NCBI GenBank assembly: GCA_041497675.1
Contig: JBGQGY010000008.1
Coordinates: forward strand, 1-59,117
Direction: 5' to 3'
DNA: 59,117 bases
Source: a bacterium
GTDB taxonomy: Bacteria > Sysuimicrobiota > Sysuimicrobiia > Sysuimicrobiales > Humicultoraceae
The notes under the pieces are model-generated. The model searched no databases. It was not told where the DNA came from and saw only the letters and a list, made by a program, of their open reading frames with translations. The stretch's first letter is position 1. Each line of letters starts with the position of its first letter. The position numbers and the translations under genes are program-made. Positions 2,283 to 54,537 of this stretch are shown here, one piece after another.

Positions 2283-3487
2283 AGCGCAATCACTCCTTCA
2301 TAGGCCAGGGCCTCGATTTCTGCGCGCGTGTACCCCGATTCGACCAACACCTGTTCCGTGTGCTCGCCCAGCAGCGGCGCCGCACGTCGGATGCGCGGCG
2401 GCGTCTGCGAGCACTTTACGGCCGGACCGATCTGCCGGATGCGACCGGCGACCCGGTGATCGACTTCCTGCAGCATGCCGCGCTCCAGCACGTGCGGATG
2501 CGTGAACACGTCCGGATACGTGTTGATCGGCCCGCACGGGACACCCGCGTCTTCCAAGACGCGCAGCCAATGCGCGCGCGGACGATCGATCGTCACGTCC
2601 TCGATGATCTCCTGCAGGGTCTGCCGGTGCGCGACCCGCGCGGCGTTCGTGGCGAATTCCGGCTGCTCCCGCAGACGCTCCAATCCGAGTACCCGGCACA
2701 GCCGCTCCCAGTTGCGGTCGTTGGCGGCCCCCACGGTGATGTAGCCGTCCTGACACCGGATGGCCTGGTAGGGCGCGCTCAGCCGGTGCGCCGACCCGGT
2801 CGGCTGCGGGGCCTGGTTGGTGGTGAAGTACTCGGTGGCTTCCCAGACCGACAGCGCGATCCCGGCTTCGAGCAGCGAGGTCTCCACGCGCTGCCCTTCA
2901 CCCGTCCGCGACCGGTGGATGTAGGCGCAGAGGATCGCGTACGTGACCAGCAGCGACGCGCCGAGATCGCACACAGGCACGCCGCTCTTCACCGGCCCGC
3001 CGCCGGGCACACCCGTCACCGACATGATGCCGCTCTCGCCCTGCGCCACCAGATCGAACCCTCCGCGGTGCGCGAGCGGTCCGGTTTGCCCGTAGCCCGA
3101 CACCGACGCGTAGATCAGCCCCGGATGCAGCGCGCGCATCGCGTCATAGCCCAGCCCCAACCGCTCGAGCGTGCCCGGCCGGAAGTTTTCCACCAGGATG
3201 TCGGCCCCACCGGCCAGACGGCGGCATAGGTCGGCGCCTTTGGGATCCTTCAGGTTCACGACGACGCCGCGTTTGTTGCGGTTGACGGCCCAGAACCCGG
3301 CGCTCTCAGTACCGTGCCCGCCGACGAGTTTGCGGCTCGAATCGCCTTCGGGCGGTTCGATCTTGATCACGTCGGCGCCCATGTCGGCCAGGAGCATCGT
3401 ACAGTACGGACCGGCCATCACCTGGCTGAAGTCGATCACGCGGACGCCGCTCAGGGCGCCGGCCGTGCCATCGGTTTGCGTCAGCAT
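2267..3487 (-). CDS. CaiB/BaiF class III CoA-transferase
   Basis: LSGVRVIDFSQVMAGP, ADVIKIEPPEGD, NRNKR, ENFRPG, GFDLVAQ; start placed at ATG 3487. Confidence 0.93.
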   Translation of the reverse strand: MLTQTDGTAGALSGVRVIDFSQVMAGPYCTMLLADMGADVIKIEPPEGDSSRKLVGGHGTESAGFWAVNRNKRGVVVNLKDPKGADLCRRLAGGADILVENFRPGTLERLGLGYDAMRALHPGLIYASVSGYGQTGPLAHRGGFDLVAQGESGIMSVTGVPGGGPVKSGVPVCDLGASLLVTYAILCAYIHRSRTGEGQRVETSLLEAGIALSVWEATEYFTTNQAPQPTGSAHRLSAPYQAIRCQDGYITVGAANDRNWERLCRVLGLERLREQPEFATNAARVAHRQTLQEIIEDVTIDRPRAHWLRVLEDAGVPCGPINTYPDVFTHPHVLERGMLQEVDHRVAGRIRQIGPAVKCSQTPPRIRRAAPLLGEHTEQVLVESGYTRAEIEALAYEGVIALCPSL

Positions 3488-3611
3488 CACACACACCACC
3501 CGCCGCTGGAGTTCGCCCCGGCGCGGCTCTCATCCCCCCGGGGCCATCGTGACACGGCGCATCACGTGTCCATCGGAGGAAAGGTGCCGCGCGCACGTCG
3601 AACCTCGCGAT

Positions 3612-4829
3612 GTGCCCCGCAGGCTGTATCGTGAGGACGCCTATCTGCGCGAGTTCACGGGGGACGTGACCGCGGTCAGGGTGGTGGAAGGCCGTCCCGC
3701 GATTGCGCTCTCACAGACGGCGTTCTATCCGACGGCCGGCGGCCAGCCGTGCGATCTTGGCCGCTTAGGCCGTTTCAAGGTGACCGACGTCCGTGAAGAG
3801 GACGATGAGGTCTGGCACGTGCTCGACGGCGGCCCGCCGCCCGCCGTTGGTGAGCCTCTTGACGGCGCCATTGACTGGGAGCGCCGCTTCGATCACATGC
3901 AGCAGCATTCAGGGCAGCACGTGCTCTCGCAGGCGTTCGTGCGCGCGCTCGACGCCCAGACGGTGTCGGTCCACATGGGGACAACGTGCACCCTCGACGT
4001 GGCGGTGCCCGCACTCGACGCCGCGGGCGCGGCCCGCGCCGAGTCCGTCGCGAATACCGTCGTCATGGAGAATCGGCCGGTGATCATCCGCGAGGTCGAC
4101 CCCGACCGTGTGGCCGAGCTCGGGTTGCGGCGTCCACCGAAGGTCACGGGACCGGTTCGGGTCGTCGAGGTGGCGGACTTCGATCGGTCCGCGTGTGGCG
4201 GCACGCACGTCCACGCGTGCGGTGAGATCGGCCCGATTCTCATCCGCAGTTGGGAACGGTACAAGGGCGGTATGCGCGTCGACTTCGTCTGCGGCTGGCG
4301 GGCGCTGCGCGATGCCCGCGAGCGGCTTGCGCTCGTCCGGGACCTCTCCGGTCAGCTCAGCGTCGGCGAGCACGAGTTGCGGGATGCGGTCACCCGCCTG
4401 CGCGAGCGCGCCAGGGAGCTCGAACGCGATCTTGTCGAGGCGCGCACCCGCCTACTGGGCTACGAGGCCGCAGAGCTCGTCGAGGCCGCGCGCCGCTCGA
4501 CCGGGCCGGACGAAACCACCGTCATCGCCGCGGCGTTCACCGGGCGGCCGATCGAAGAGTTGCGCGCGCTGGCACGGGCGGTCACCGCGCAGGACAGATG
4601 TGTGGTGATCTTCGCCACCGATCCCGACCGCCGCATGATCGTCGCCCGCAGCCCCTTACTCACGGTCGATGCGTCGGTCATCCTGCGCGAAGCGTTGTCC
4701 GCGCACAACGGCCGCGGCGGAGGGAAGCCCGAGGCCGCCGAAGGCATGGCCGCGTCCGCACCCTCGGCGTCGGTCCTCGTAGACGCCGCCCGCGACGCGG
4801 CGCGCCGTCACCTCGCCGCCCATGCCTGA
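3612..4829 (+). CDS. Freestanding alanyl-tRNA editing protein (AlaX-like) with C-terminal DHHA1 domain
   Basis: RLYREDAY, TAFYPTAGGQP, Zn ligands HMQQHSGQH and CGGTH, C-terminal GRGGGKP. The true start is probably GTG 3612; the ORF-track extension overlaps the divergent gene. Confidence 0.88.
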   Translation: MPRRLYREDAYLREFTGDVTAVRVVEGRPAIALSQTAFYPTAGGQPCDLGRLGRFKVTDVREEDDEVWHVLDGGPPPAVGEPLDGAIDWERRFDHMQQHSGQHVLSQAFVRALDAQTVSVHMGTTCTLDVAVPALDAAGAARAESVANTVVMENRPVIIREVDPDRVAELGLRRPPKVTGPVRVVEVADFDRSACGGTHVHACGEIGPILIRSWERYKGGMRVDFVCGWRALRDARERLALVRDLSGQLSVGEHELRDAVTRLRERARELERDLVEARTRLLGYEAAELVEAARRSTGPDETTVIAAAFTGRPIEELRALARAVTAQDRCVVIFATDPDRRMIVARSPLLTVDASVILREALSAHNGRGGGKPEAAEGMAASAPSASVLVDAARDAARRHLAAHA

Positions 4830-11564: not shown

Positions 11565-12923
11565 GTGGACGCAACCAAGATCCTGCTCGGCGAGAACGAC
11601 ATCCCAAAGTCCTGGTACAATATCGCCGCCGATCTGCCGGTTCCTATGGCGCCGGTCCTCCATCCCGGGACCAAGCAGCCAATCGGCCCCGCCGACCTGG
11701 CGCCGCTGTTCCCGATGGCGCTCATCATGCAGGAGGTCAGCACCGAGCGTCACATCGAGATCCCCGAGCCGGTGCGCGACATCTACCGTCTGTGGCGCCC
11801 GACACCGTTGTATCGGGCCCGGCGTCTCGAGAAGGCGCTCGATACCCCCGCGCACATCTACTACAAGTATGAAGGGACCAGTCCAGCCGGCAGCCACAAA
11901 CCCAACACGGCGGTGGCGCAGGCGTTCTACAACAAGCAAGAAGGGGTGCGCCGCCTGACCACCGAGACGGGGGCGGGGCAGTGGGGGAGCGCGCTCGCGC
12001 TCGCCTGCCGGTTCTTCGACCTGATCTGCACCGTTTATATGGTGAAGGTCTCGTACGAGCAAAAGCCCTACCGCAAGGTGATGATGCAGACCTGGGGCGC
12101 TGAGGTGTTGCCCAGTCCCTCGGACCGCACCAACGCCGGCCGTGCCATCCGCCAGAAACATCCCGACTCGCCGGGCAGCCTCGGCATCGCGATCAGCGAG
12201 GCGGTCGAGGACGCCGCCACCCACGACGACGCCAAGTACTCGTTGGGCAGCGTGCTGAACCACGTGCTGATGCACCAGTCGGTTGTCGGGCTCGAGGCCA
12301 GGAAGCAGATGGAGATGGCCGGCGAGGCACCGGACGTCGTGATCGGCTGCGTCGGCGGCGGCAGCAACTTCGCGGGTCTGGCGTTTCCCTTCATGCCCGA
12401 GAAGTTCAAGGGGCGCAATGTGCGCTTCGTGGCGGTCGAACCCGAGGCGTGCCCGTCGTTGACCCGCGGCCAGTACCTGTACGACTTTGGCGATACGGCC
12501 GCGACGACGCCCCTCGTCAAGATGTACACGCTTGGGCACAATTTCATCCCGGCGCCGATTCACGCGGGTGGGTTGCGCTATCATGGCGACGCGCCGCTGC
12601 TCTGCCTGCTCTATCATCACAAATACATCGAAGCGGTGGCCTACCAGCAGCGAACGGTCTTCGACGCCGCGATGCAGTTTGCGCGTACGGAGGGCATCCT
12701 GCCGGCGCCCGAGGCGGCCCACGCGATCCGCAAGGCGATCGATGAGGCGTTGGAAGCCAAGAAGGAAGGCCGCGCGCGGACGATCCTGTTTGGGCTGTCA
12801 GGCCACGGTCACTTCGACCTGGGCGCGTACGAGGCGTACATGGCCGGCCGGCTGGAAGACTTCGCCTATCCCGAAGAGGCGATCAAAGACGCGATGCGAG
12901 AACTAGCGGCGATCCAGCCCTAG
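11565..12923 (+). CDS. trpB2: Tryptophan synthase beta chain, TrpB2 type
   Basis: [14 protein letters not shown]-terminus, PLP lysine in [41 protein letters not shown]; no adjacent trpA. Confidence 0.93.
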
Positions 12924-13730: not shown

Positions 13731-14462
13731 CTAGGGGAGCCGGTGTGACTCGGCGGCCGGCGCCACGTGGGCCGCGGCATGGCCGCCTGGTCGCTCGAGG
13801 GTGTGCACGTGGACCCGACGCGCGATGTCACGGCCCAGAGCGCGCATCTGGCCGCGCACCATTAACGTGATCGGTCCGTCGAGTGGGGCCACTTCGCGAA
13901 CCTGCACTTCCACGCCCGGCGTCAGGCCGACCGCCACCAGGTGCGCAACGATTGCTTGATCCTCTTCCGGGATGCTGGCCACGGCGGCGCGGTCCCAGAC
14001 GTCCAGCCGATCGAGCGTGATGACGGATGCGACAGGGGCCGGCTTCTCGCCAGGAATCGGAAATCCGTGCGGGCAGGTCGCCGGATGCCCGAGCACCTCC
14101 GCCAGGCGGGCCTCGACCTGCGGGCTGATCACATGCTCCATCTTGCACGCCTCGGCGTACACCGCGGGCAGCTCAAGGTGCAGCACGTCGGTCAGCAGCC
14201 GCTCGGCCAGACGCAGGCGGCGTACGACTCGCTCGGCGGTCTGCAGGCCCAGGGGCGTCAAGCGATAGCCCTGCTCGGTACCGGACCGCAGCAGCCCCTG
14301 CGCCTCCAAGCGCTTGAGCATTTCGTACGACGACGGCGACGATACACCCATGGAGTCGGCGACCTTCGCGATGGTGACCGGTGAGGCGGCCTGCGACAGC
14401 GAGTACACGGCCTTCAGGTACATCTCGATGCGCTCGGTCTTCGCGATGTCGTGGACGGTCAT
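13731..14462 (-). CDS. DtxR/IdeR/MntR-family metal-dependent repressor with C-terminal FeoA domain
   Basis: EMYLKAVY, wHTH, RRLRLAERLL, EACKMEHVIS, CPHGFPIP, FeoA (VGLTPGVEV); start ATG 14462 overlaps the Fur stop (ATGA). Confidence 0.9.
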   Translation of the reverse strand: MTVHDIAKTERIEMYLKAVYSLSQAASPVTIAKVADSMGVSSPSSYEMLKRLEAQGLLRSGTEQGYRLTPLGLQTAERVVRRLRLAERLLTDVLHLELPAVYAEACKMEHVISPQVEARLAEVLGHPATCPHGFPIPGEKPAPVASVITLDRLDVWDRAAVASIPEEDQAIVAHLVAVGLTPGVEVQVREVAPLDGPITLMVRGQMRALGRDIARRVHVHTLERPGGHAAAHVAPAAESHRLP

Positions 14463-14878
14463 CGCCGGCACTCGCGGCACACGCCGCGAAAGATCACATC
14501 GACGCTCTGCACCCAAAAGCCCTGGCGCTGGTCGGGTGGAATGTTGATGGGGTCGACAATCGCGTGCACGTCTCGTACCGTGCCGCAGCGGGCGCACACA
14601 GCGTGATGGTGGGGCTGGGGGTTCGGATCGAACCGCGTGCTCCCGGTGCCCAGATCGAGTTGCTGGATCGCGCCCATCTCAACCAGTTCGTGGAGAATCG
14701 CGTACACGGTGCGCAGCGATAGCGTGTGCATCACCGACTGCGCCCGCCGGTGGAGCGCCTCGGCGGACGGGTGCTCGACGTTGCCGTCAAGCAGCCGGCA
14801 GATCAGGGCCCGCTGCGGGGTGAGGCGGCCGCGCGTCTGCCGCATCTGGCGTTCCAGGGCCGTCCGCGCTATCTGCAT
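14459..14878 (-). CDS. Fur-family regulator (PerR-like)
   Basis: RLTPQR, HPSAE, TVY, RFD, HHHAVCARCG, RDV and C-terminal CREC (two CxxC). Confidence 0.88.
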   Translation of the reverse strand: MQIARTALERQMRQTRGRLTPQRALICRLLDGNVEHPSAEALHRRAQSVMHTLSLRTVYAILHELVEMGAIQQLDLGTGSTRFDPNPQPHHHAVCARCGTVRDVHAIVDPINIPPDQRQGFWVQSVDVIFRGVCRECRR

Positions 14879-14973
14879 CTGGCACCTAACAACGATTGTC
14901 GCGCGACCACGGAACGGCGCAAGGGGACGGGTCTTTGGTTGAAGCGCTGCGGCATTTGTCCAGGCTACGCTCG

Positions 14974-15014
14974 TACAATTGGTTTCTCTAAACCCAACAA
15001 TAAGGATACCCTAA
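14974..15014 (+). promoter_or_regulatory. -10 element (TACAAT) followed by two DtxR-type operator-like sites
   Basis: TACAAT 14974-14979; ATTGG-tttc-TCTAA 14978-14991 and TAAGG-atac-CCTAA 15001-15014 resemble the TTAGG-N4-CCTAA DtxR-family core. Confidence 0.6.
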
Positions 15015-15056
15015 GGCATGAGGCACCGCAAGACCGACTGCTCAAGGAGGAAGATC

Positions 15057-16097
15057 GTGAACCGATTCACCAGACTCGGACTGCTGATCCTGTTCCTGCT
15101 TGTCGCCCTTCCGGCCGGCCTCGCGGCCGCACCACAGACCAGAGTCTTGAATCTCTACTCCGCCCGCCACTACGACACCGATGAGACGCTCTTCGACGGC
15201 TTCATGGCGAAGACGGGGATCAAAGTCAACCTCATCGAAGGCGGCGAGGATCAGCTCATCGAGCGGATGAAGGCCGAAGGGCGCAACAGCCCCGCCGATG
15301 TCTTGATCACGGTAGATGCGGGGCGGTTGTGGCGGGCAGAGGAGGCCGGGTTGTTCCAGAAGATCAGCTCGCCGGTCCTGAACACGCGTTTGCCCGCCAG
15401 CCTGCGCGACCCCAACGGGTACTGGTACGGTTTTGCGATGCGCGTGCGGGTCATCGCGTATGCGCGGAACCGGATCAACCCGGCGCAGCTCTCCACCTAC
15501 GAGGATCTTGCCGACCCCAAGTGGCGGGGCAAGCTGCTCGTGCGTAGTTCGAGCCACGTCTACAACCAGTCGCTGGTCGGGGCGCTGATCGCCGTCCACG
15601 GCGGAGCCCGCGTCGATCAATGGGCCCGCGGCATCGTCGCGAACTTTGCGCGCCAGCCGCAAGGCGGCGATTCCGACCAGATCAAAGGCGTCGCGGCGGG
15701 CGAAGGCGATCTGGCCGTGATCAATCACTACTACTACGCGCGGCTTCTCAACTCTTCACGCGCGGACGAGCGCGGGATTGCCGAGAAGGTAGGTCTGTTC
15801 TACCCGAATCAGGGCCCGGGTCAGCGCGGTGTCCACGTCAACATCAGCGGTGGGGGCGTGGTGGCGACAGCACCGAACCGCGAGTCCGCGATCGCGTTTC
15901 TCGAGTACCTCGCCTCCGACGACGCGCAGCGCCTCTTTGCGCGGGGCTCGTTCGAGTACCCTGCGGTGGCCAGCGTCCCGAAAGATCCTTCCATCCTCGG
16001 GCTGCGCGCGTTTAGGGCCGACCCGCTCAACGCCCGCACCTACGGGGCGAACAATCAACAGGCGTTGCAGTTGATGCTGCGCGCTGGATGGCGCTAG
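15057..16097 (+). CDS. fbpA: Fe3+ ABC transporter substrate-binding protein (FutA/FbpA)
   Basis: Signal peptide, NLYSARHY, SPADVLITVDAGRL, GGDSDQI, NHYYY iron-ligand tyrosines; start GTG 15057 after AAGGAGG. Confidence 0.92.
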   Translation: MNRFTRLGLLILFLLVALPAGLAAAPQTRVLNLYSARHYDTDETLFDGFMAKTGIKVNLIEGGEDQLIERMKAEGRNSPADVLITVDAGRLWRAEEAGLFQKISSPVLNTRLPASLRDPNGYWYGFAMRVRVIAYARNRINPAQLSTYEDLADPKWRGKLLVRSSSHVYNQSLVGALIAVHGGARVDQWARGIVANFARQPQGGDSDQIKGVAAGEGDLAVINHYYYARLLNSSRADERGIAEKVGLFYPNQGPGQRGVHVNISGGGVVATAPNRESAIAFLEYLASDDAQRLFARGSFEYPAVASVPKDPSILGLRAFRADPLNARTYGANNQQALQLMLRAGWR

Positions 16098-17827
16098 GGT
16101 CGACGCTGGAACCACTGCGGGGCGCTCGGGCGGCGCGCACGTGGGTGCTCCCCGCCGCCGGGCTGGTGCTGACCGCGGCACTCGCGACGCCTATCCTGGT
16201 CGTCCTGGCCAGTGTGTTCGTCCCCACCGAAGGCGCCTGGGCGCGCCTGGCGGCCCTGACGCTGCCGAGCTACATCGCGAACACGGTGTGGTTGCTGCTG
16301 GGCGTGGGAGCCGGAGTCCTGATAGTCGGTGTTGGGACGGCCTGGATCATCACCATGTACAGGTTTCCCGGCAGCCGCATGTGCGAGTGGATCTTGCTGC
16401 TGCCCATGGCCGTACCCGCGTACCTGCTCGCCTACACGTACGCTGATCTCCTGCAGTTTACCGGACCGGTGCAGACCGCGTTGCGGGCGTGGTTCGGCTG
16501 GAGTCGAGGGGACTACTGGTTTCCCGAGATTCGATCGCCGGGCGGCGCCGTCGCGGTAATGGTCTTTGTGCTCTATCCGTACGTCTACATGCTGGCGCGC
16601 GCCGCCTTCCTCGAACAGTCGGCGTCGGTGCTGGAAGCGAGCCGGACCCTGGGGCAGGGGGCATGGCGGACGTTTCTCGGCGTCGCGCTGCCGCTCGCGC
16701 GGCCCGGCATCGTGGCGGGGCTGACGCTGGTGTTTATGGAGGTGCTCGCCGACTTCGGCACGGTGAAGCACTTTGAAGTCGCGACGTTCACCACAGGGAT
16801 CTATCTCACGTGGTTTGGGCTCGGATCGCCGGTTGGAGCCGCGAAACTCGCCGCCGGTCTGCTCGCGGTCGTGCTGCTCATCCTGGGTCTCGAACAACGC
16901 CTGCGTGGCGGAAGGCGGTTCCATCAAACGTCTGCTCGCCCGGTGACGCCGGCCGCACAACGGTTGGGCGGCGTCCGTGGGGTCGGCGCCCTGGCCGCCT
17001 GCCTGCTGCCGCCGGTCGTCGGATTCTTCGTCCCAGGCGGGGTCCTGCTCCAGATGACGCTCGATAGTGGCGACACGGCGCTCGGACGCAGCTTTGGGCG
17101 GCTTGCGACGAACACGTTTGGTCTGGCCGCCGTCACGGCCGGTCTGGCGGTCGTCGCCGCCGCGCTCATCGCCTACGGGGTGCGGGTCGGGCGCGGACGT
17201 CTCACGCAGCTCGCGGCGCGTGTGGCGACCCTTGGGTACGCGGTGCCCGGATCGGTGATCGCCGTCGGGGTGATGCTGCCGTTTGGCTGGATCGACAACA
17301 CCGTTGACGGGTGGATGCGCGCGGCGTTTGGTCGGCCGACAGGACTGCTGCTGAGCGGCACCGTCGCGGCTCTGATATTCGGGTACCTCGTTCGATTCCT
17401 GGCGGTGTCCTTCAACGCCGTTGAGGCGGGGTTGTCCCGCATCAGGCCGAGCATGGAGGAAGTGGCGCAGACGCTCGGGCATGGGCCGGGCAGCACGCTC
17501 TGGCGTGTCCACGCGCCGATGATGAAGGGCAGTCTGCTGACGGCCGTCTTGCTGGTGTTCGTCGACACGCTGAAGGAGCTGCCGGCGACGCTGATCTTGC
17601 GGCCGTTCAACTTCGAGACGCTGGCGCTCCGCGTCTACCGCTTGGCTTCCGACGAACGGCTCGCCCAGGCGTCGACCGCGGCCCTGACCATCGTCGGCGT
17701 GGGCATCGTCCCTGTGATCGTCCTCAGCATGGCGATCGCCAGATCGCCCGCGATCACCAGATCGCACGCCGTTGCCCGCGCCCAGCCCGGCCGGGGGCAG
17801 GACGCGAGGGGGCCGCGCCGCCCTTGA
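16088..17827 (+). CDS. fbpB: Fe3+ ABC transporter permease (FutB/FbpB)
   Basis: Two EAA-like loops (LEASRTLG, MEEVAQTLG), LYPYVYMLAR, ADFGTV, KELPATLILRPFNFETLA. Confidence 0.92.
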   Translation: MALGSTLEPLRGARAARTWVLPAAGLVLTAALATPILVVLASVFVPTEGAWARLAALTLPSYIANTVWLLLGVGAGVLIVGVGTAWIITMYRFPGSRMCEWILLLPMAVPAYLLAYTYADLLQFTGPVQTALRAWFGWSRGDYWFPEIRSPGGAVAVMVFVLYPYVYMLARAAFLEQSASVLEASRTLGQGAWRTFLGVALPLARPGIVAGLTLVFMEVLADFGTVKHFEVATFTTGIYLTWFGLGSPVGAAKLAAGLLAVVLLILGLEQRLRGGRRFHQTSARPVTPAAQRLGGVRGVGALAACLLPPVVGFFVPGGVLLQMTLDSGDTALGRSFGRLATNTFGLAAVTAGLAVVAAALIAYGVRVGRGRLTQLAARVATLGYAVPGSVIAVGVMLPFGWIDNTVDGWMRAAFGRPTGLLLSGTVAALIFGYLVRFLAVSFNAVEAGLSRIRPSMEEVAQTLGHGPGSTLWRVHAPMMKGSLLTAVLLVFVDTLKELPATLILRPFNFETLALRVYRLASDERLAQASTAALTIVGVGIVPVIVLSMAIARSPAITRSHAVARAQPGRGQDARGPRRP

Positions 17828-17916
17828 GAGTGCCACGAGGCTCTGATACGCTGAGCGATGCTGCGGCGGGCTTCAGGTTCGAGGTCGGAGCACGCGCAGG
17901 GGAGGCTGGACGTCTG

Positions 17917-19020
17917 ATGGGACAGGCGGCTCCACGCCCGCCGGTCGTCGTACTGCGGGATGTCGTGCGCCGTTTTGATGGCGCCTCGTCACCCGCGGTC
18001 GACGGGCTGTCGCTCGCGGTCGATGAAGGCGAGATCCTGGTGCTGCTCGGACCCAGCGGCAGCGGCAAGACCACGGCGCTCCGCTTGGTGGCCGGATTCG
18101 AGCGGCCCGACGCCGGTGAGGTCTGGGTCGCCGGTCGGCAGGTCGCCGGCGGCGAGGCATGGGTGTCCCCAGAAGCCCGTGGCGTCGGGATGGTGTTTCA
18201 GGACTACGCGTTGTTTCCCCATCTGACGGCAGCCGAGAACGTCGCCTTTGGCCTGCACTGCTTTCACTGGTTCGAGCGCGGGCCTCGTACCCAGGATGCC
18301 CTCGATCTCGTCGGGATGCGCGAGTTCGCCGACCGCTATCCGCATGAGCTGTCTGGAGGACAGCAGCAGCGCGTGGCCTTGGCGCGCGCGCTCGCACCGC
18401 GCCCGTTTGCCGTGCTGCTCGATGAGCCCTTCTCAAACCTCGACGCGCATCTGCGCGCGTCGCTCCGCGACGATGTGCGGGCGATCCTAAAACAGACGGG
18501 TACCAGCGCAATCTTTGTCACGCACGATCAGCAGGAGGCGCTGCTGCTGGGCGACCGGGTGGCGGTGCTCAACCAGGGACGCCTAGAACAGGTTGACCCA
18601 CCCGAGCGCATCTTCCACGCGCCGCGCACGCGGTACGTCGCCGCCTTCTTCGGTCGGGTGGACTTCGTCCCCGCCACCGTCGATGCTGCGGGACTGGTCA
18701 CCGAGGTCGGCGTGGTCCGGCAGCCCGTCGCGCTGCCGGCGGGGACGGCGGTCGAAGTGCTGGTCCGTCCCGACGACGTGGCCATGACCGTCTCGGATCA
18801 CGGCCGGGGCGTCGTAAAGCAGCGTTTGTTCCAGGGCGGCGCGACGATCTACTGCGTGCAGCTGCCGTCCGGCCGCACAATCCACAGCCTCCAACCCCAC
18901 ACCACCCGCATCGACCCCGGCGCCCACGTGGCGGTCGCGATCGAGCCGGGCCACGCCCTGACCTGCTTCTGCGACGGCCGGGCCGTGGACAGCGAGGCGA
19001 ACGCAGCGGCACGACGATAG
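17917..19020 (+). CDS. fbpC: Fe3+ ABC transporter ATP-binding subunit (FutC/FbpC)
   Basis: GPSGSGKT, LSGGQQQR, LLDEPFSNLD, C-terminal TOBE-like domain; start ATG 17917 after GGAGG. Confidence 0.9.
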   Translation: MGQAAPRPPVVVLRDVVRRFDGASSPAVDGLSLAVDEGEILVLLGPSGSGKTTALRLVAGFERPDAGEVWVAGRQVAGGEAWVSPEARGVGMVFQDYALFPHLTAAENVAFGLHCFHWFERGPRTQDALDLVGMREFADRYPHELSGGQQQRVALARALAPRPFAVLLDEPFSNLDAHLRASLRDDVRAILKQTGTSAIFVTHDQQEALLLGDRVAVLNQGRLEQVDPPERIFHAPRTRYVAAFFGRVDFVPATVDAAGLVTEVGVVRQPVALPAGTAVEVLVRPDDVAMTVSDHGRGVVKQRLFQGGATIYCVQLPSGRTIHSLQPHTTRIDPGAHVAVAIEPGHALTCFCDGRAVDSEANAAARR

Positions 19021-19030
19021 GCGGATCCTC

Positions 19031-19774
19031 ATGAGACCGGCGCCCGGCTGGCTACTCGACCTTCGTTCCGGACCGGTGCGCTACGCGGACGCCTGGGCGT
19101 TGCAGCGCGACCTCATGCGGGCCCGCCAGGCAGGTGCTGTTCCCGACGTGCTTCTGTTGCTCGAGCATCCTCCGGTGGTCACGCTCGGACGCAGCGGCAA
19201 GGCGCAGAACCTGCTGGTCTCACCCGATGTCCTGCGCGCGCACGGTATCGATCTCTTCGAGGTCGAGCGCGGGGGCGACATCACCTATCACGGGCCCGGT
19301 CAACTCGTCGGATATCCGATCGTCGATCTGCGTGCCCTCGATGAGGACGTCGTCCGCTACATGCGCACGCTTGAGGAATCGCTCATTCGGACGCTGGCGT
19401 TTTTCGGGATTGAAGGGGGTAGGGAACGCGGGTATCCAGGAGTGTGGGTTGGTGGGTCCAAGGTGGCTGCGATGGGCGTCGCGGTCAAGCGCCGCGTGAC
19501 GATGCACGGCTTCGCCCTGAACGTCAGCACTGACCCACGTGTGTTTGACCTCATCAACCCCTGTGGGCTGGGCAGGCCGGTCACGTCGATGAGCCGGTTG
19601 GCGGGACAACCGATCGAGGTGAACCAGGTGCGAGCGGTCTACGCGGAGCAGTTTACGCAGGTCTTTGGGATCGGGCTTGAGCCCATCGATCGCGTTCACG
19701 TCGACGAGGCGCTAGCCGCGCTACGGCCGCGCGACTCCGGCCCGTCCGGGCCAGGGGCGTTAGCCCGGGTATAG
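19031..19774 (+). CDS. lipB: Octanoyltransferase LipB
   Basis: LLEHPPVVTLG, RGGDITYHGPGQLVGYPI, KVAAMG, HGFALN, INPCG. Confidence 0.95.
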   Translation: MRPAPGWLLDLRSGPVRYADAWALQRDLMRARQAGAVPDVLLLLEHPPVVTLGRSGKAQNLLVSPDVLRAHGIDLFEVERGGDITYHGPGQLVGYPIVDLRALDEDVVRYMRTLEESLIRTLAFFGIEGGRERGYPGVWVGGSKVAAMGVAVKRRVTMHGFALNVSTDPRVFDLINPCGLGRPVTSMSRLAGQPIEVNQVRAVYAEQFTQVFGIGLEPIDRVHVDEALAALRPRDSGPSGPGALARV

Positions 19775-19778
19775 GGAG

Positions 19779-20588
19779 ATGTTGCCCGATCTGCGCGTCG
19801 TACCCGCGGTAGCGCTGCATCTGCACGAAGACTGCGACCCCGAGCGGGTCGACCGGCTGGCGCAGCGGCTGGACGCCGACGGCGTGCTGCGCAACCCTCC
19901 GATCGTCGCCCTGCTGGACGCCCGGCCCGGCCACGCGCCTGAGTACGTCGTCCTGGACGGTGCGAATCGCGTGACCGCCATGCAACGGTCCGGGCTGCCG
20001 CATCAGGTGGTGCAGGTCGTCCCCTACGACGATCCTGCCGTGATCCTGGAGGTCTGGGCACACCTGTTGCAGCATGACGGCGCCATCGTGCGTTCATTCC
20101 CCCTGTGGACGGCGGCCTCTCCAGTTGCCGTCCACAGGGGCCTCGACGACGGGACGTTTGCCTGTGGGTTGGTGACGGCGCGCGGCGCCTGGGGGGCGAA
20201 GATCGACGGGACGCTGGGCGAGCGGGTGCGCGCGCTGGCGGCCATCGTGGCCACGTACAAGGGGAAGGTGCCGATCTACCGGACGCAGGGAGCGGCCTTC
20301 GCCACACTGGCGGAAGAGTTCGGCGGCGCCGATGCGCTGGTGCTCTTCCCGCGACTGTCGAAGGCCGATATCCGCGCCATCGCGCGCCTGCCCGTCAAGC
20401 TCCCGACCGGCATCAGCCGGCACATCGTGTCGCTGCGCGCGCTGCGGGTCAACGTGGACCTGGCGATGCTCAGGGGCGACGAACCGGTGGCCGCCAAACA
20501 GGCTAGTTTGGACGCCTTGATCCGCGCCCGCCTGCTGGACCGCCGGGTCCGGCACTACCCTGAACCCACGGTCCTCTACGACGAGTGA
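19779..20588 (+). CDS. ParB/Srx-fold protein, probable SbnI/SerK-like free L-serine kinase
   Basis: LHE near the N-terminus, LRNPPIV, YVVLDGANR, VWAH and LPTGISRH correspond to the HE / DGxHR / W / PxxxxR motifs of SbnI and SerK; no ParB HTH; stop overlaps the cysteine synthase start. Confidence 0.72.
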   Translation: MLPDLRVVPAVALHLHEDCDPERVDRLAQRLDADGVLRNPPIVALLDARPGHAPEYVVLDGANRVTAMQRSGLPHQVVQVVPYDDPAVILEVWAHLLQHDGAIVRSFPLWTAASPVAVHRGLDDGTFACGLVTARGAWGAKIDGTLGERVRALAAIVATYKGKVPIYRTQGAAFATLAEEFGGADALVLFPRLSKADIRAIARLPVKLPTGISRHIVSLRALRVNVDLAMLRGDEPVAAKQASLDALIRARLLDRRVRHYPEPTVLYDE

Positions 20589-21544
20589 TGGCCTACCGGT
20601 TTGTTCCTGAGCAGCCCTTCGACATCGGCTCCGATCTGCTCGCCCTGATTGGTAACACCCCGTTGGTGCCGATCCGCCGCATCAACGGCGTCCCGTCCGG
20701 CGTGGCCGTGTTTGCCAAACTCGAGGGACACAACCCCGGGGGCTCGGTCAAGGACCGACCCGTGCTTCGGATCATCGAGGACGCTGAGCGTGATGGGCGC
20801 CTCACGCGTGATCGCATCATCCTGGATTCCACCAGCGGGAACGCCGGTATCGCGTACGCGATGATCGGCGCCGCAAAGGGGTACCGCGTCACGCTGTTGG
20901 TGCCGCGGAACATCAGCGATGAGCGGAGGGGAGCCCTTCTGGCCTACGGCGCGGAGTTGATATTTACCGATCCCTTGGAGGGCTCGGACGGCGCCATGCT
21001 CGAGGCGCGGCGCCTGGCCGCCGCCGAACCGAGACGGTATGCCTACCTCGACCAGTACGACAATCCCAGCAACTGGCGCGCGCACTACGACGGCACGGGG
21101 CCGGAGATCATCGCGCAGACCCACGGCCGCATCACCCACTTCGTGGCTGGGGTCGGCACAACCGGAACCCTCGTCGGCGTCGGCCGGCGGTTCCGCGAGA
21201 CCGACCCGGCCATCGAGATCGTCGCGGTCGAGCCGGACGATGGGTTTCACGGTATCGAGGGCTTGAAGCACCTGCCGACCGCGATCACCCCCGGTATCTA
21301 CGACCCCACCGTGCCGCACAGGACCGTGCGGGTCTCGTCCGGCGCCGCGTATGCCATGACCCACCGGCTGGCCGCGCAAGAGGGGATCCTGGCGGGTCCC
21401 TCGTCGGGCGCCGCGATGGCCGCGGCGGTCGAGGTGGCGGGCCGTCTGGACCAGGGCGTGATCGTCGTGATCTTCCCCGACAGGGGCGATCGCTACCTGT
21501 CCACCAACCTCTGGCGTCCGAAAGTTGACCTCCGCACTGTATAA
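20588..21544 (+). CDS. cysM: PLP-dependent cysteine synthase, CysM / O-phosphoserine sulfhydrylase type
   Basis: IGNTPLV, KLEGHNPGGSVKDR (PLP Lys), STSGNAG, DQYDNP, GVGTTGT, IEGLKH, GPSSGA, FPDRGDRYLS. Confidence 0.85.
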   Translation: MAYRFVPEQPFDIGSDLLALIGNTPLVPIRRINGVPSGVAVFAKLEGHNPGGSVKDRPVLRIIEDAERDGRLTRDRIILDSTSGNAGIAYAMIGAAKGYRVTLLVPRNISDERRGALLAYGAELIFTDPLEGSDGAMLEARRLAAAEPRRYAYLDQYDNPSNWRAHYDGTGPEIIAQTHGRITHFVAGVGTTGTLVGVGRRFRETDPAIEIVAVEPDDGFHGIEGLKHLPTAITPGIYDPTVPHRTVRVSSGAAYAMTHRLAAQEGILAGPSSGAAMAAAVEVAGRLDQGVIVVIFPDRGDRYLSTNLWRPKVDLRTV

Positions 21545-21545
21545 T
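21521..21545 (+). promoter_or_regulatory. Internal promoter (TATAAT 21540-21545, leaderless spacing to mec ATG) overlapped by an IscR/Rrf2-type operator-like 25-mer
   Basis: AAAGTTGACCTCCGCACTGTATAAT; the perfect -10 ends 7 nt before ATG 21553; the left half resembles the IscR type-1 half-site ATASYYGAC. Confidence 0.55.
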
Positions 21546-21552
21546 AGGGTGA

Positions 21553-21954
21553 ATGGCACTGGACCTTACCAGGGCGCAGGTCGATGAGATGATTGCGCAC
21601 GCCCATGCCGAGTTTCCAAGCGAGTGCTGCGGGCTGCTCGCGGGCCGCGGAGACCGGGTCGAACTGCTGTTTCGCGGCCGCAACGTCGACCACAGTCCCT
21701 ATACCTATAGTCTCGACCCGCAGGAACAGTTGCGGTTCTTTAAGGATATGGATGCCCGCGGTTTGGAACTGGTGGGGATCTACCACTCGCACACGCAGTC
21801 GCCGGCGTATCCGTCGCGCACGGACGTGGCCAAGGCCCTGTACCCCGATGCGGCGTATGTGATCGTGTCGTTGCAGGACGAGCGGACGCCCACAATGCGG
21901 GCCTTCCGAATACGGGACAACACAATCGTCGAGGAGGCGCTGGCGGTTCGGTGA
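21553..21954 (+). CDS. mec: JAMM/MPN+ (M67) metallopeptidase, Mec-like CysO-cysteine peptidase
   Basis: PSECCGLL and YHSHTQSPAYPSRTD (E...HxH-x7-S-xx-D JAMM motif), directly after the cysteine synthase. Confidence 0.85.
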   Translation: MALDLTRAQVDEMIAHAHAEFPSECCGLLAGRGDRVELLFRGRNVDHSPYTYSLDPQEQLRFFKDMDARGLELVGIYHSHTQSPAYPSRTDVAKALYPDAAYVIVSLQDERTPTMRAFRIRDNTIVEEALAVR

Positions 21955-22421
21955 AGACGTCGACCCGCGCGGAATACGGCCTGCGAGCCCTCATCGATCT
22001 CGCCGCTCACTATGGCGAGGGGCCGGTCCGCAGCCGGATCATTGCCGAGCGCCAGGGCTTGCCCGAACCCTACCTCAACCAGTTGATGACCATGCTCCGC
22101 CGGGCGGGACTGGTCACCAGCAAGCGCGGTCCCACCGGCGGGCACCTGCTGTCGCGGCCCCCCGCCGAAATCAGCCTCAAGGAGGCGTTCGAGGTGCTCG
22201 AGGGCTCGACCGCCCCCTGGTGGTGTGCCGAGGTCGAAGACCCCGACTGCGAGTTTGCGCCGGACTGCGGCCTGCGACCGGTCTGGAAGGCGATCGGGGT
22301 CGCCGCGGACGGCGTGCTGAACCGGCTGACGCTGGCCGACCTGCGACCGACCCGCGCGGCACCGGCCGCGCCGCCGCGTGTGCCGAGTCCGCGCCGGCAG
22401 AAGGCGCAGGGGAATGTCTAG
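21951..22421 (+). CDS. Rrf2-family transcriptional regulator with three Cys (probable Fe-S sensor)
   Basis: STRAEYGLRAL, YLNQL, SKRGPTGG, C-x7-C-x5-C (WWCAEVEDPDCEFAPDCGL); GTGA overlap with mec. Confidence 0.9.
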   Translation: MKTSTRAEYGLRALIDLAAHYGEGPVRSRIIAERQGLPEPYLNQLMTMLRRAGLVTSKRGPTGGHLLSRPPAEISLKEAFEVLEGSTAPWWCAEVEDPDCEFAPDCGLRPVWKAIGVAADGVLNRLTLADLRPTRAAPAAPPRVPSPRRQKAQGNV

Positions 22422-22451: not shown

Positions 22452-23093
22452 ATGGGTGCTGCATCCGTGACGCACGAACAGCCGCACGCGACCGTCTCGC
22501 AGGAGGACCGCGCACGCTTCGAGGCGCTGGTGCACGAGCACCTCGACAGCCTGTACGGATCTGCGCTGCGCCTCACGCGCAACCGTACCGCCGCTGAAGA
22601 TCTCATCCAGGACACGTTCTTGAAAGCGTGGCGCTCGTTCCACACCTTCCAACAGGGCACCAACGCCCGTGCCTGGTTGTACAAGATCCTGATGAATGCC
22701 TACATCGACTCATACCGCCGCTCCTCGCGGGCGCCCGAGATGGTCGATCACGAGGACGTGGGCGAGTTCTATCTGTACGCGAAGGCGCAGGAGAGCGACG
22801 ATCTCCGCCGCGCGGGCGACCCCGAAGAGATTTTGCTGTCGAAGATCATGGATGCCGACGTCAAGACGGCCCTGGAAGCCGTCCCCGAGCCGTTCCGGAT
22901 GGCGGTGATCCTCGCCGACCTCGAAGAGTTTTCGTATCGTGAGATCGCCGAGATCCTGGGCATCCCGATTGGCACGGTGATGTCGAGACTGTATCGAGGA
23001 CGCCGGCACCTGCAGCGGCTGCTGTGGGACTATGCGCGGCGGGCCGGGTACGTCAAGAGTCCGTCAAAGGACGCGAAGGCCGGGGACGCATGA
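22452..23093 (+). CDS. ECF sigma factor, SigR/SigH(Actinobacteria)-like
   Basis: AEDLIQDTFLKAW, FQQGTNARAWLYKI, VPEPFRMAVILADLEEFSYREIAEILGIPIGTVMSRLYRGR. Confidence 0.9.
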   Translation: MGAASVTHEQPHATVSQEDRARFEALVHEHLDSLYGSALRLTRNRTAAEDLIQDTFLKAWRSFHTFQQGTNARAWLYKILMNAYIDSYRRSSRAPEMVDHEDVGEFYLYAKAQESDDLRRAGDPEEILLSKIMDADVKTALEAVPEPFRMAVILADLEEFSYREIAEILGIPIGTVMSRLYRGRRHLQRLLWDYARRAGYVKSPSKDAKAGDA

Positions 23094-23323
23094 GCGGGTG
23101 CGACTGCGACGATCTGCTGGAGCGGCTGTGGGCCTACATGGACGGCGAGGCCGATGACCAGGCCCGCAGTCACCTGGTGGCGCACATCGAGCGGTGTCTG
23201 CCCTGTCGCCAGCAGGCTGAGTTCGAGCGTCGGCTGCGCGAGATCATCCAGTACAAGTGCCGCGGCGAGCGCGCCCCCGAAACCCTGCGTATCGAACTGG
23301 TGAGTCTGATCATCCGCTCGTAG
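23090..23323 (+). CDS. Zinc-binding anti-sigma factor (RsrA/RshA-like, ZAS)
   Basis: N-terminal CDC, LWAYMDGE, HIERCLPC (HxxxCxxC), KCRGERAP; ATGA overlap with the sigma gene; no TM. Confidence 0.88.
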   Translation: MSGCDCDDLLERLWAYMDGEADDQARSHLVAHIERCLPCRQQAEFERRLREIIQYKCRGERAPETLRIELVSLIIRS

Positions 23324-23346
23324 TCGAGCTCAGTCAGGAGGGACCC

Positions 23347-23727
23347 ATGGCGAAGGAAGTCGTGCGCAGCGACAAGGCGCCGCTGCCGATCGGACCATAC
23401 TCGCAGGCGATCCGTGCCGGGGGTGTGCTGTATCTCTCGGGGCAATTGGCGCTCGATCCGGCGACGGGACAGTTTCTCGCGGCGGACATCAAGACGCAGA
23501 CCCGCCGGGTGCTGCAGAATCTGGCCGCGGTGCTGGAGGCGGCAGGGTCGTCGATGGACCGCGTGGTGAAGACAACGGTGTTCCTGAAGGACATGAATGA
23601 TTTTGGGGCGATGAATGAGGAGTATCAAAACGTCTTCCGCGAGCTGCCGCCCGCGCGCTCGACGGTGCAGGTGGCGCGGCTCCCGCGCGATGCTCTGGTG
23701 GAGATCGAGTTGATCGCGCTGGCGTGA
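23347..23727 (+). CDS. ridA: RidA/YjgF enamine-imine deaminase
   Basis: APLPIGPYSQA, SGQL, VKTTVFL, PPARSTVQV, VEIELIA; start ATG 23347 after AGGAGG. Confidence 0.93.
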   Translation: MAKEVVRSDKAPLPIGPYSQAIRAGGVLYLSGQLALDPATGQFLAADIKTQTRRVLQNLAAVLEAAGSSMDRVVKTTVFLKDMNDFGAMNEEYQNVFRELPPARSTVQVARLPRDALVEIELIALA

Positions 23728-24167: not shown

Positions 24168-24241
24168 TGGGGGGTCGGCTAACGGAAAGCCCTCAGCCTT
24201 TGAAGCTGAGTATCCAGGTTCGAGTCCTGGCCCCCCAGCCA
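24168..24241 (+). tRNA. tRNA-Gln (anticodon TTG)
   Basis: Acceptor TGGGGGG/CCCCCCA, D-arm GGCT/AGCC, anticodon arm TCAGC-CT-TTG-AA-GCTGA (TTG 24200-24202), T-arm GGTTCGAGTCC, encoded CCA; U1-A72 pair typical of GatCAB-dependent tRNA-Gln. Confidence 0.96.
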
Positions 24242-45396: not shown

Positions 45397-45496
45397 GCTG
45401 CGCGCGGCGCGACGGCCGCGTTGACATGGTGGAGTAGAATGTACGTGTGCCGTTTGCCGATCGCAAACGGAGACGGTGCGTGAGGAGGGGTGAGTG

Positions 45497-45952
45497 ATGC
45501 GGGTCGATTCTCGCAAAATAGCGATCGCGGTTGGTGTGATCATCATCTTGGGGTTGGCGGGCGCCCTCTTATGGCGGCAGGTGCCCGCGGCCATGGGGCA
45601 GTCGTTCTCCGTCGGGTACGTGGAGATGCAGCGGGCGCTGGACAATCATCCGCGCAAGGTATCGTCCGAGCGGGCCCTCCAGGAGTTCTTCCAGGCCAAA
45701 CAGCGCGAGTTCCAGGAGCGGAGCAAGACGATGCAGCCCTTCCAGCGCCAGGAACTCGATCGCCAGTTGCAGCAGCAGATCCTCGAGAAGCGGGGCGAAC
45801 TGCTCGGTGGGCTCGACAAAGAGATCCGCGCGGCGGTGGAGCAGATCGCGAAGCAGAGCAACGTCACCATCGTGCTCGATCGTAGCGTCGTCCTCTTCGG
45901 TGGGGTCGATCTCACTGAAGCGGTCATCAAGTTCGTCAAGGGCGCTAAATAG
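45497..45952 (+). CDS. skp: OmpH/Skp family chaperone
   Basis: N-terminal hydrophobic segment, VGYVEMQRALDNHP, coiled coil, VTIVLDRSVVLFGGVDLTEAV. Confidence 0.85.
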   Translation: MRVDSRKIAIAVGVIIILGLAGALLWRQVPAAMGQSFSVGYVEMQRALDNHPRKVSSERALQEFFQAKQREFQERSKTMQPFQRQELDRQLQQQILEKRGELLGGLDKEIRAAVEQIAKQSNVTIVLDRSVVLFGGVDLTEAVIKFVKGAK

Positions 45953-45953
45953 G

Positions 45954-47105: not shown

Positions 47106-47106
47106 G

Positions 47107-47550
47107 ATGCGGCTGCGACGTGGAGCGATGGTCAGGTGGCGGACGGCGCTGATAGCCGTCCTCGGGCTTGTCGTCTTGACCGCGGCCGGTTGCCGGAGCG
47201 GCCAGGTCGGACTGGTGGACAGCCGGCGAATTATCACCGAGAGCGCACGGGCCCTGCGGTTTCAAAAGGACATCGACGATCGTGAACGGGCGATGGCGCA
47301 AGATCTTCAGATGCTTGCTAACCAGTTATCCAAAGAGGACCTCGACGCGCGCCGGGCCCAGTACTTTCAAGAGCTTCAGGCCCTCCGTGCTCAGCTCGAG
47401 CAGACGCTCAACCGCGAAGTGCACGATGCGCTGCAGCAGGTCGTGAAAGAGAAGCGCCTGCGTGGTGTGATGACGAAAGGCCCCGTTGTCTACAGTCGGC
47501 CCGGCTCCACCGTCGATATCACCCAGGACGTGATCGACCGGCTCCGCTAG
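47107..47550 (+). CDS. OmpH-like lipoprotein
   Basis: Lipobox [25 protein letters not shown]; the start may be 47128. Confidence 0.78.
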
Positions 47551-47594
47551 GACGGCCGGGACGCCGGTCGCCGCGGTGCCGGCAGGAGACAGCG

Positions 47595-49471: not shown

Positions 49472-49506
49472 CGGCGACGCGCTGACGTCGGGCGCGGAGG
49501 TCGGTC

Positions 49507-52317: not shown

Positions 52318-52344
52318 GATGAGGCACGTGGAGGCCCACTGACG

Positions 52345-53800: not shown

Positions 53801-53818
53801 GAGCGACGAAGCCGTAGC

Positions 53819-54535: not shown

Positions 54536-54537
54536 AC

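Follow-up and report, generated by a model that had tools for sequence, protein, structure and literature searches.

The gene at positions 19779-20588 (+ strand) of a 59,117-nucleotide stretch of DNA from a bacterium of the phylum Sysuimicrobiota (the window; contig JBGQGY010000008.1 of assembly GCA_041497675.1, the genome called G000 below) probably encodes a free L-serine kinase with the fold of SbnI and SerK. The enzyme would make O-phospho-L-serine (OPS) for a cysteine route that depends on a CysM-type synthase and a sulfur carrier protein. As we infer its catalytic steps, phosphate donor and carrier, the route would begin with the phosphorylation of serine to OPS by the kinase at the expense of a nucleoside triphosphate (or ADP), after which the translationally coupled CysM would convert OPS to an aminoacrylate on pyridoxal phosphate (PLP). 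A ThiS/MoaD-type carrier (CysO) would add its thiocarboxylate end to the aminoacrylate, the carrier-cysteine adduct would undergo an S-to-N shift, and the JAMM peptidase Mec would free cysteine and regenerate the carrier. A single MoeZ-type protein with E1 and rhodanese domains (contig C36, positions 3378-4559) would recharge the carrier, whose gene would have moved out of the cluster in G000, the best candidate being at positions 44315-44584 of contig C4. An earlier note, made from the letters of the window, had proposed this hybrid route from serine through OPS and carrier-bound cysteine to cysteine; the fold of the kinase-like protein, the linkage of the genes, natural fusions and the absence of CysE now lend it support.

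The kinase-like protein (269 aa) has no Pfam domain at E≤0.01, helix-turn-helix (HTH) domains and DUF1015 included, and membership of DUF1015 is ruled out on this ground. Among the NCBIfam models, those of SbnI (NF033589; 5e-12, 45.7 bits against a cut-off of 350) and SerK (NF053625; 0.0026, 16.9 bits against a cut-off of 380) match it, the first weakly and the second marginally. A search with the single sequence found the SbnI chain 5uje in the Protein Data Bank (PDB) at 5.1e-12, and a profile of an alignment of 35 relatives matched SbnI (1.6e-26) and SerK (1e-10) over nearly the whole length. The AlphaFold2 model built on the same alignment reached a pLDDT of 93.2 and a pTM of 0.90. When this model was compared with the PDB by Foldseek, the best nine matches were all SbnI or SerK structures (E 5.7e-17 to 3e-13, TM 0.64-0.81, 233-268 columns), whereas ParB, Noc, KorB and sulfiredoxin (Srx) aligned to the first ~86 residues only, with a TM of ~0.25. 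The absence of a Pfam HTH and the matches of the N-terminal domain to ParB and Srx agree with the earlier description of a ParB/Srx-fold protein without a DNA-binding HTH, and the structural comparison pointed to SbnI and SerK rather than to ParB CTPases or nucleases. Sequence identity to the SbnI and SerK structures is 15-21%; because of this low identity and of scores far under the NCBIfam equivalog cut-offs, the protein is, judged by its sequence, a member of a separate clade and an orthologue of neither.

The serine-kinase motifs that had been noticed in the letters (HE, DGANR, a conserved W and PTGISR) are present and align with SbnI and SerK. In the window's protein they are H16-E17, D60-G-A-N-R64, W93 and P209-T-G-I-S-R-H215, all invariant or nearly so in the 35 relatives; E17 is identical in 35/35, and D60, G61, R64, P209, G211, R214 and H215 are likewise invariant. 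According to the profile alignment, H16-E17 corresponds to P-H-E30 of SerK (5x0b) and to L-H-E of SbnI, and E30 is the residue mutated in SerK (E30A, E30Q) according to the titles of PDB entries 5x0g and 5x0k. DGANR aligns with IDGVHR of SbnI and VDGHHR of SerK, and PTGISRH with PAGVTRF and SPKTTRH, respectively. We take DGxxR to be a nucleotide/phosphate motif, and the roles ascribed here to its residues and to those of the C-terminal T/S-R-H/F loop are likewise our assumption. E17 and D60 are predicted to be catalytic, and P209-H215 is proposed as the substrate loop. In its modelled fold and its aligned catalytic motifs, the protein matches the free serine kinases.

Two characterized kinases provide the closest comparisons. 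SbnI of Staphylococcus (PDB 5uje, 5ujd and 6nr6), which serves staphyloferrin B synthesis, is the closest solved relative, both by profile and by Foldseek (E ~1e-16, TM up to 0.81), and its LHE and DG..R motifs are kept. Its OPS presumably goes to the CysK-family PLP enzyme SbnA. SbnI differs in its low identity (18-21%), in its siderophore pathway, in being also a regulator and in having no link to ThiS, JAMM or MoeZ genes. SerK of Thermococcus kodakarensis (TK0378; PDB 5x0b) shares the two-domain fold (TM 0.64-0.80), has E30 at the position of E17, carries the DGxxR and T/S-R-H motifs and is also annotated as ParB. In the accessible text on SerK, serine is activated for cysteine synthesis by phosphorylation and not by acetylation, and clear-cut SerK homologues are said not to have been found in bacteria (Makino et al., 2016; PMC5120207). 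SerK is only 15-16% identical to the protein described here, and it is archaeal whereas the latter is bacterial. Moreover, the partner of SerK is a sulfide-using CysK, whereas the kinase-like gene here is accompanied by a CysM-type enzyme that is tied to a carrier protein and to a JAMM peptidase.

The kinase-like gene is directly followed by the gene for this synthase. The kinase stop codon (TGA, 20586-20588) overlaps the CysM start by 1 base if translation begins at the ATG at 20588 and by 4 bases if it begins at the GTG at 20585; the CysM gene (+ strand, 319 or 318 aa) ends with a TAA at 21542-21544. After a gap of 8 nt, the Mec gene starts with an ATG at 21553 and runs to 21954 (+ strand, 133 aa). 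The values of G+C at third codon positions (0.87 for the kinase gene, 0.85 for CysM and 0.78 for Mec, in a window of 67% G+C) are the codon bias of real genes. Three adjacent genes, the first two overlapping by one base, had been described, and the open reading frames (ORFs) lie on the + strand at these coordinates, the ATG start giving the one-base overlap. The notion of a three-gene unit holds insofar as all three are packed together, but the unit has at least five genes and extends, on one strand and with almost no spacing, from LipB through the kinase-like gene, CysM and Mec to an Rrf2-family regulator.

By its sequence, the CysM protein is a fold-type II PLP enzyme of the CysK/CysM subfamily (PALP, 3.5e-68). 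It scores just below the cut-offs of two NCBIfam models (TIGR01138, 358.9 bits against 394.2; TIGR01136, 343.6 against 344.15), and its best PDB matches are CysM of Salmonella and Escherichia coli (~4e-75), with CysM of Mycobacterium tuberculosis at 1.6e-63. The lysine of the S-V-K-D-R motif is invariant in 34 linked CysM sequences. The lysine of IEGLKH (K228 counted from the GTG, K227 from the ATG) aligns with Arg220 of M. tuberculosis CysM (index 222 of chain 3dwg_A, which has two extra residues) and with Arg210 of E. coli CysM. We take Arg220 to be the residue that selects OPS in the mycobacterial enzyme. Among 49 kinase-linked CysM proteins, 47 have K and 2 have R at this position, which belongs to a conserved H-G-I-E-G-L-K-H motif; the residue is consistent with a phosphate-binding role without showing one. 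The basic residue claimed for this CysM is therefore present at the Arg220 column, but in view of Arg210 of E. coli CysM it does not discriminate between OPS and O-acetylserine. The CysM protein is proposed to be an O-phosphoserine sulfhydrylase that takes a thiocarboxylated carrier. A prediction of whether CysM and the kinase-like protein, each with its own alignment, form a complex of the CysE-CysK kind gave no answer (scores of 0.00 and 0.00), which speaks neither for nor against binding.

The third gene had been called a JAMM peptidase, and its complete motif (E24, H78-x-H80, S88 and D91, read from the translation) and a Prok-JAB match of 2e-27 bear this out. The best PDB match is 2kks (3.6e-27). 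The adduct of carrier and cysteine is the proposed substrate of Mec, which, where relatives have CysO fused to the kinase, possibly also cuts behind the GG of the carrier domain.

The gene neighbourhoods of relatives tie the kinase to this machinery. A scan with one genome per species gave 451 loci with a relative, of which the best 80 were analysed, a sample that leans to close relatives; neighbours were detected with the window proteins as phmmer queries on stop-to-stop ORFs. CysM lies directly downstream of the kinase in 46 of the 77 loci with enough sequence, and Mec follows as a separate ORF within 2.6 kb downstream in 36 of 66. CysM and Mec share one open frame of ~470-480 codons in 8 further loci (L034, L036, L045, L050, L052, L059, L066 and L073), apparently natural fusion proteins. 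An Rrf2 gene was found downstream in 42 of the 66 loci with at least 2 kb of downstream sequence. Upstream, a CysO-like gene occurs within 2.2 kb in 27/60 loci and a PALP+CBS (cystathionine-beta-synthase-like) gene in 28/60; LipB precedes the kinase in most related loci, and RidA occurs downstream in 23/80. The fullest cluster, that of L030, consists of LipB, a cystathionine-gamma-lyase-like gene, ThiS, PALP+CBS, the kinase, CysM, Mec, Rrf2, an ECF sigma factor, an anti-sigma factor and RidA. Metagenome-assembled genomes (MAGs) of Chloroflexota type show independent arrangements, for example kinase-ThiS (CysO)-MoeZ-CysM in L088 and Mec-MoeZ-kinase in L077. The linkage to CysM, Mec and CysO, one of the points on which the earlier proposal hung, is thus kept in other genomes.

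Other neighbours point to OPS rather than to cysteine as such. The kinase is a neighbour of TrpB2 in three MAGs (L067, 127 nt downstream; L085; L087). Two of these, labelled betaproteobacterial, have the kinase with TrpB2 and a HAD hydrolase and no cysteine genes nearby (L067:5950-9073 and L085:3600-6816); the hydrolase may be SerB-like. TrpB2 proteins are described as OPS-dependent tryptophan synthases (Busch et al., 2014, as cited in the accessible text of PMC11917138). Mycobacterial-type CysM, TrpB2 and SerA have one metabolite in common, namely OPS.

The kinase belongs to a large family that is hidden behind uninformative names. A search of 1.84 billion cluster representatives returned 830 clusters when cut at E≤0.001, of which 454 reached E≤1e-10. 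Public names of relatives include 'hypothetical protein', 'ParB N-terminal domain-containing protein' and 'ParB-like chromosome segregation protein Spo0J', much as had been foreseen for automated annotation, and PF02195 occurs on 2 of the 120 homologues listed. From the ESM Atlas came only clusters named 'hypothetical protein' and, at 0.94, a single archaeal cluster of ParB_N + SerK_C, a lead and not evidence.

Natural fusions are a further feature of this family. Eight of the 120 close homologues listed are ThiS-kinase fusions (370-376 aa, PF02597 ThiS/MoaD), in which an N-terminal carrier domain ending in ...AMAGG is followed by a short linker and then by the kinase. In addition, 17 long forms were picked from 150 listed representatives, 16 of them with the match at the C-terminal end, together with P0041. 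Eleven carry a D-2-hydroxyacid dehydrogenase (6 full-length, 5 N-terminally cut), one Prok-JAB, one ThiS, and four nothing recognisable. The full fused dehydrogenase domains score 357-382 bits with the phosphoglycerate dehydrogenase (PGDH) model TIGR01327, over its first ~310 positions, versus 223-246 for glyoxylate reductase. On the strength of these domain matches, the kinase family is naturally fused to CysO-type carriers, a Mec-type peptidase and SerA-type enzymes. In a separate observation, at L067:3559-6816 (+ strand) the kinase ends a 1086-codon open frame whose first ~800 codons have no Pfam match; it may be a large fusion, or the G+C-rich DNA may have kept the frame open by chance.

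The gene content of G000 is compatible with such a route. No CysE was found in a search of G000, the sole match being the hexapeptide part of GlmU at 32 bits. The two CysK/CysM-like genes are that of the window and one at C80:9123-10364 in an unrelated context. G000 has one MoeZ-type E1 with a rhodanese domain, already mentioned as the candidate for recharging, and one PLP enzyme of the Cys/Met gamma family. Its carriers comprise a MoaD-MoaE fusion and three stand-alone CysO-like proteins, encoded on C4, C262 and C64, of which the C4 protein is closest to the kinase-fused CysO domain (47% identity, 4e-20). The C4 gene is part of a trio with ThrB and a threonine-synthase-like gene, side by side at C4:44315-46800 (- strand; locus L005), which by analogy looks like a MetM/MetO route from O-phosphohomoserine to homocysteine. 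Two further ThrC-like genes lie on C114 and C16. The carrier genes on C262 and C64 belong to paralogous pairs (C262:683-2085 and C64:15454-16880), in each of which a CysO-like carrier is followed by a ~372-aa protein weakly like F510_1955-family glycosylhydrolases.

Serine and tryptophan genes of G000 bear on the supply and use of OPS. SerA, SerC and SerB had no equivalog-level match in G000, where ambiguous paralogues are present. At least five 2-hydroxyacid dehydrogenases occur, the best being a 420-aa ORF on C9 with 278 bits for PGDH versus 244 for glyoxylate reductase, and there are several class-V aminotransferases that are AGXT- or BhcA-like. A phosphorylated serine pathway through SerA and SerC may thus operate in this genome, and the bypass of SerA and SerC in the earlier proposal is no more than a possibility. 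The window itself encodes a TrpB2-type (TrpB-like) PLP enzyme (11565..12923, + strand; NF009057, 755.1 bits against a cut-off of 366), and a canonical TrpB is encoded separately on contig C73. The window TrpB2 is a possible second consumer of OPS.

The same pattern extends across the phylum. In a set of 80 genomes of the GTDB phylum with completeness of at least 80%, including the unpublished G014 and G018, the kinase was found in 76 (74/78 without these two), ThiS/MoaD in 79 (77/78), TrpB2 in 47 (47/78) and CysE in one (1/78). The expectation that CysE is bypassed therefore accords with its absence from G000 and from 79 of the 80 phylum genomes. One family is nearly without TrpB2 (1/20) yet keeps the kinase (19/20), and in many phylum genomes 7-12 kb separate the TrpB2 gene from the kinase gene. 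Of the 76 genomes with the kinase, at least 45 have a same-strand ThiS gene no more than 3 kb upstream of it, none of the 45 being unpublished; the count, made by comparing coordinates by hand, is a lower bound, since it drew on 150 of 258 ThiS rows. G000 and its sole congener G016 are without an adjacent carrier.

Several observations weigh against a serine kinase feeding a carrier-dependent CysM. Given an identity of 15-21% to SbnI and SerK and scores far below the equivalog cut-offs, the substrate could differ. With 256 bits against the CysM of E. coli and Salmonella, which use O-acetylserine, and 218 bits against that of M. tuberculosis, the CysM is nearer to the former, and K228 had to be rejected as a marker of OPS specificity, Arg occupying the same column in E. 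coli CysM, an O-acetylserine enzyme. The linkage is mostly that of one phylum, with CysM downstream in 41/47 close loci but in 5/30 distant ones, and 19 of the 80 loci have no linked cysteine gene. Even among close relatives, L014, L015, L016, L020 and L026 are LipB-kinase-Mec-Rrf2 loci without CysM between the kinase and Mec. Where the kinase gene is solitary (five genomes), CysE occurs in three and TrpB2 above the cut-off in four. In G000, neither the window nor the immediate surroundings of the cluster contain a ThiS/CysO carrier gene, and the carrier must therefore come in trans; the C4 candidate stands beside a ThrC-like gene and ThrB, so that a homocysteine role is possible for it. Finally, G000 is a 98.6% complete draft in 272 contigs, and absences from it are therefore not proven.

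Four other explanations were weighed. The kinase might make OPS for a CysM that uses free sulfide or thiosulfate like E. coli CysM, with Mec serving other carriers, for instance a MetO-like one, and cysteine arising from serine through OPS without a carrier. Although the lack of a ThiS gene in the window and of an adjacent carrier in G000 and G016, the higher score of the synthase against the E. coli and Salmonella enzymes, and the placement of the closest carrier beside ThrC and ThrB, like MetM/MetO (Table 2 in the accessible text of PMC13759103), would all suit this version, we consider it unlikely: Mec is kept right after CysM across an 8-nt gap, the two are fused in 8 related loci, the C4 carrier is 47% identical to the kinase-fused CysO domain, and MoeZ is present. 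A main role in serine metabolism is, in our judgement, distinctly unlikely as well. The kinase would then interconvert serine and OPS, either substituting for SerB or leading from serine to 3-phosphoglycerate via SerC and SerA, and its place in the cluster would reflect a shared metabolite. Such a role is suggested by the absence of a SerB reaching the cut-off in G000, the SerA-like dehydrogenase domains on 11 of the 17 long forms, the HAD hydrolases that adjoin the kinase in L067 and L085, and CysE in three of the five solitary-kinase genomes. The accessible literature also contains a proposal of a kinase in place of SerB (PMC13759103) and a role of SerK in serine assimilation (PMC5120207); the first of these sources, however, describes the reverse reaction as thermodynamically unfavourable. 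The serine role is further opposed by the lack of an equivalog-level SerA or SerC in G000 to make or use OPS, by the translational coupling to CysM and the CysO and JAMM fusions, which tie the kinase to the cysteine machinery, and by the missing CysE in 79/80 phylum genomes.

It is improbable that the Srx/ParB fold has been turned to another substrate here, such as homoserine, threonine, another hydroxy acid or the C-terminus of the carrier, or that the protein is an SbnI-like regulator. The low identity to characterized kinases leaves room for this, NCBIfam names SbnI a 'bifunctional transcriptional regulator/O-phospho-L-serine synthase', and fusion to a carrier could make the carrier the substrate. 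Against these points, the protein has the two-domain fold of SbnI and SerK in its entirety, with the C-terminal domain as well as the T/S-R-H/F loop, and three independent kinds of partner (CysM, TrpB2 and SerA-like enzymes) share OPS. A separate homoserine kinase, ThrB, exists, MoeZ is available for carrier activation, and the operon already has an Rrf2 regulator. Hardly credible, lastly, is an orphan ParB-type CTPase, DNA clamp or nuclease that happens to lie beside cysteine genes, a reading to which the ParB and Spo0J names of relatives and the PF02195 matches on 2 of the 120 listed would lead. Behind its CTPase fold, a canonical ParB carries a DNA-binding HTH domain and a dimerisation domain at the C-terminus. 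An ordinary ParB CTPase or DNA clamp is ruled out by the lack of an HTH or any other Pfam domain and by ParB, Noc and KorB matching ~86 residues (TM ~0.25) versus the full-length matches to SbnI and SerK, and the conserved linkage and fusions to genes of sulfur and serine metabolism argue in the same direction.

The proposed serine kinase-CysM-Mec route has counterparts among known systems. The mycobacterial CysM-CysO-Mec-MoeZ system and the related bacterial operons share with it a CysM-type synthase, a GG-ending ThiS/MoaD carrier, a JAMM peptidase and an E1-rhodanese protein, found either here or in relatives. In mycobacteria, OPS is supplied by SerA and SerC, whereas here a dedicated kinase gene lies directly before CysM and is fused to CysO or JAMM domains in relatives; in addition, the mycobacterial CysM has Arg at 220 where the CysM here has Lys. 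Operons of ThiS, E1-rhodanese, JAB and cysteine synthase genes are described in several phyla, Chloroflexus included, and the accessible text of that study has no ParB-like gene, its kinase passages concerning other systems (Iyer et al., 2006; PMC1779556). The MetM/MetO/Mec/MoeZ system of Streptomyces is alike and one carbon longer, combining a phosphorylated hydroxy amino acid with a thiocarboxylated carrier and a JAMM hydrolase (accessible text and Table 2 of PMC13759103). It differs in that homocysteine is made from O-phosphohomoserine and in that its kinase, ThrB, belongs to the GHMP family. The DUF1015 protein 'SerBK' is likewise a proposed bacterial serine kinase, with a remotely SbnI-like structure and linkage to serA and serC; however, it is of another family and, according to the accessible text, its proposed role is to stand in for SerB when serine is made, not to supply a cysteine pathway (GapMind, 2026; PMC13759103). 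For the C4 trio compared above with the Streptomyces system, we assume MetM to be ThrC-like.

A bacterial kinase of this kind was not found in the literature in the company of these genes: full-text searches, subscription journals excepted, turned up no account of a bacterial SbnI/SerK-like kinase alongside CysM, CysO and Mec. A 2025 survey of the ParB-CTPase fold, in its accessible part, treats SerK and SbnI as known examples only, and entries for PF02597, PF02826 and PF14464 are absent from the accessible supplement text of PMC12704722, as are the kinase fusions. Two papers on the phylum do not deal with the subject: the accessible text of one mentions cysteine once in passing (PMC11962464), and in that of another the word 'cysteine' has 0 occurrences (PMC11604079). 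The component systems are thus already known; what appears new is the joining of a bacterial SerK-like step to a CysO-dependent CysM pathway.

The remaining genes of the run and of the window provide context. The gene for the octanoyltransferase LipB (19031..19774, + strand; 184.4 bits with NF010925, whose cut-off is 155) stops 4 nt short of the ATG of the kinase gene; it is the first gene of the run, is probably co-transcribed and stands outside the cysteine chemistry. The Mec stop codon (TGA, 21952-21954) overlaps by 4 nt the GTG of the Rrf2-family gene (21951..22421, + strand; Pfam Rrf2, 1.5e-36), whose product has three cysteines (CX7CX5C), scores 93 bits with the CymR model (below its cut-off of 195) and probably regulates the cluster. 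The next block, at 22452..23727 (+ strand, Pfam assignments), encodes an ECF sigma factor, an anti-sigma factor of the zf-HC2 (ZAS) type and RidA; the starts of these genes are approximate, as the listed ORFs overlap. The block is syntenic with the cluster in relatives, L030 having the same order. The sigma and anti-sigma pair after Rrf2 recalls what we take to be SigH/RshA control of mec-cysO-cysM in mycobacteria, and RidA could quench aminoacrylate that escapes from the PLP enzymes. A tRNA gene at 24168-24238 (+ strand) is the sole Rfam match in the window, the scan of which found no riboswitch, and a promoter and terminator scan gave nothing useful within the cluster. DNA contigs of sequencing runs X3 and X13, which may belong to one campaign, span the LipB-kinase and CysM-Mec-Rrf2 junctions. 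The metatranscriptome run X20 (6% of sampled words) yielded some short contigs, few in number, that fall on LipB, Rrf2 and the sigma factor but none fitting the kinase gene, and it allows no conclusion on transcription. Farther upstream, positions 13731-19020 hold DtxR-like and Fur-like regulators and an iron-type ABC importer. Downstream, a long outer-membrane and lipopolysaccharide block (42056-57269; BamA, Skp-like, LpxD/C/A/I/B and LptC/A/B/F/G) indicates a diderm envelope.

The role in cysteine synthesis may be lineage-specific. Given that CysE occurs in three and TrpB2 in four of the five solitary-kinase genomes, the whole family is better described as a supplier of OPS than as a cysteine-specific enzyme. 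In its widest form, which we put forward tentatively and would sooner question than assert, a large bacterial family, comprising at least 830 clusters at 50% identity, would consist of free serine kinases and be a general source of OPS. It would serve CysM and CysO in Sysuimicrobiota (CSP1-3) and some Chloroflexota and TrpB2 elsewhere, and in the SerA-fused forms it would link serine to 3-phosphoglycerate. Mec would act twice, in processing behind the GG of CysO-kinase fusions and in releasing cysteine, and a whole phylum would make cysteine without CysE.

If the proposed serine kinase route is correct, it would explain cysteine synthesis in a widespread uncultured phylum in which 79 of 80 genomes lack CysE, and maybe in many Chloroflexota too. 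Pathway reconstruction of the GapMind type would otherwise score such organisms as cysteine auxotrophs. A function would also be provided for a family of hundreds of clusters that has no Pfam model and is now called 'ParB-like' or 'hypothetical'. The predictions can be tested with ordinary recombinant enzymes. Three things known separately until now, the SerK of archaea, the SbnI of staphylococci and the CysO system of mycobacteria, would then meet in one bacterial pathway.

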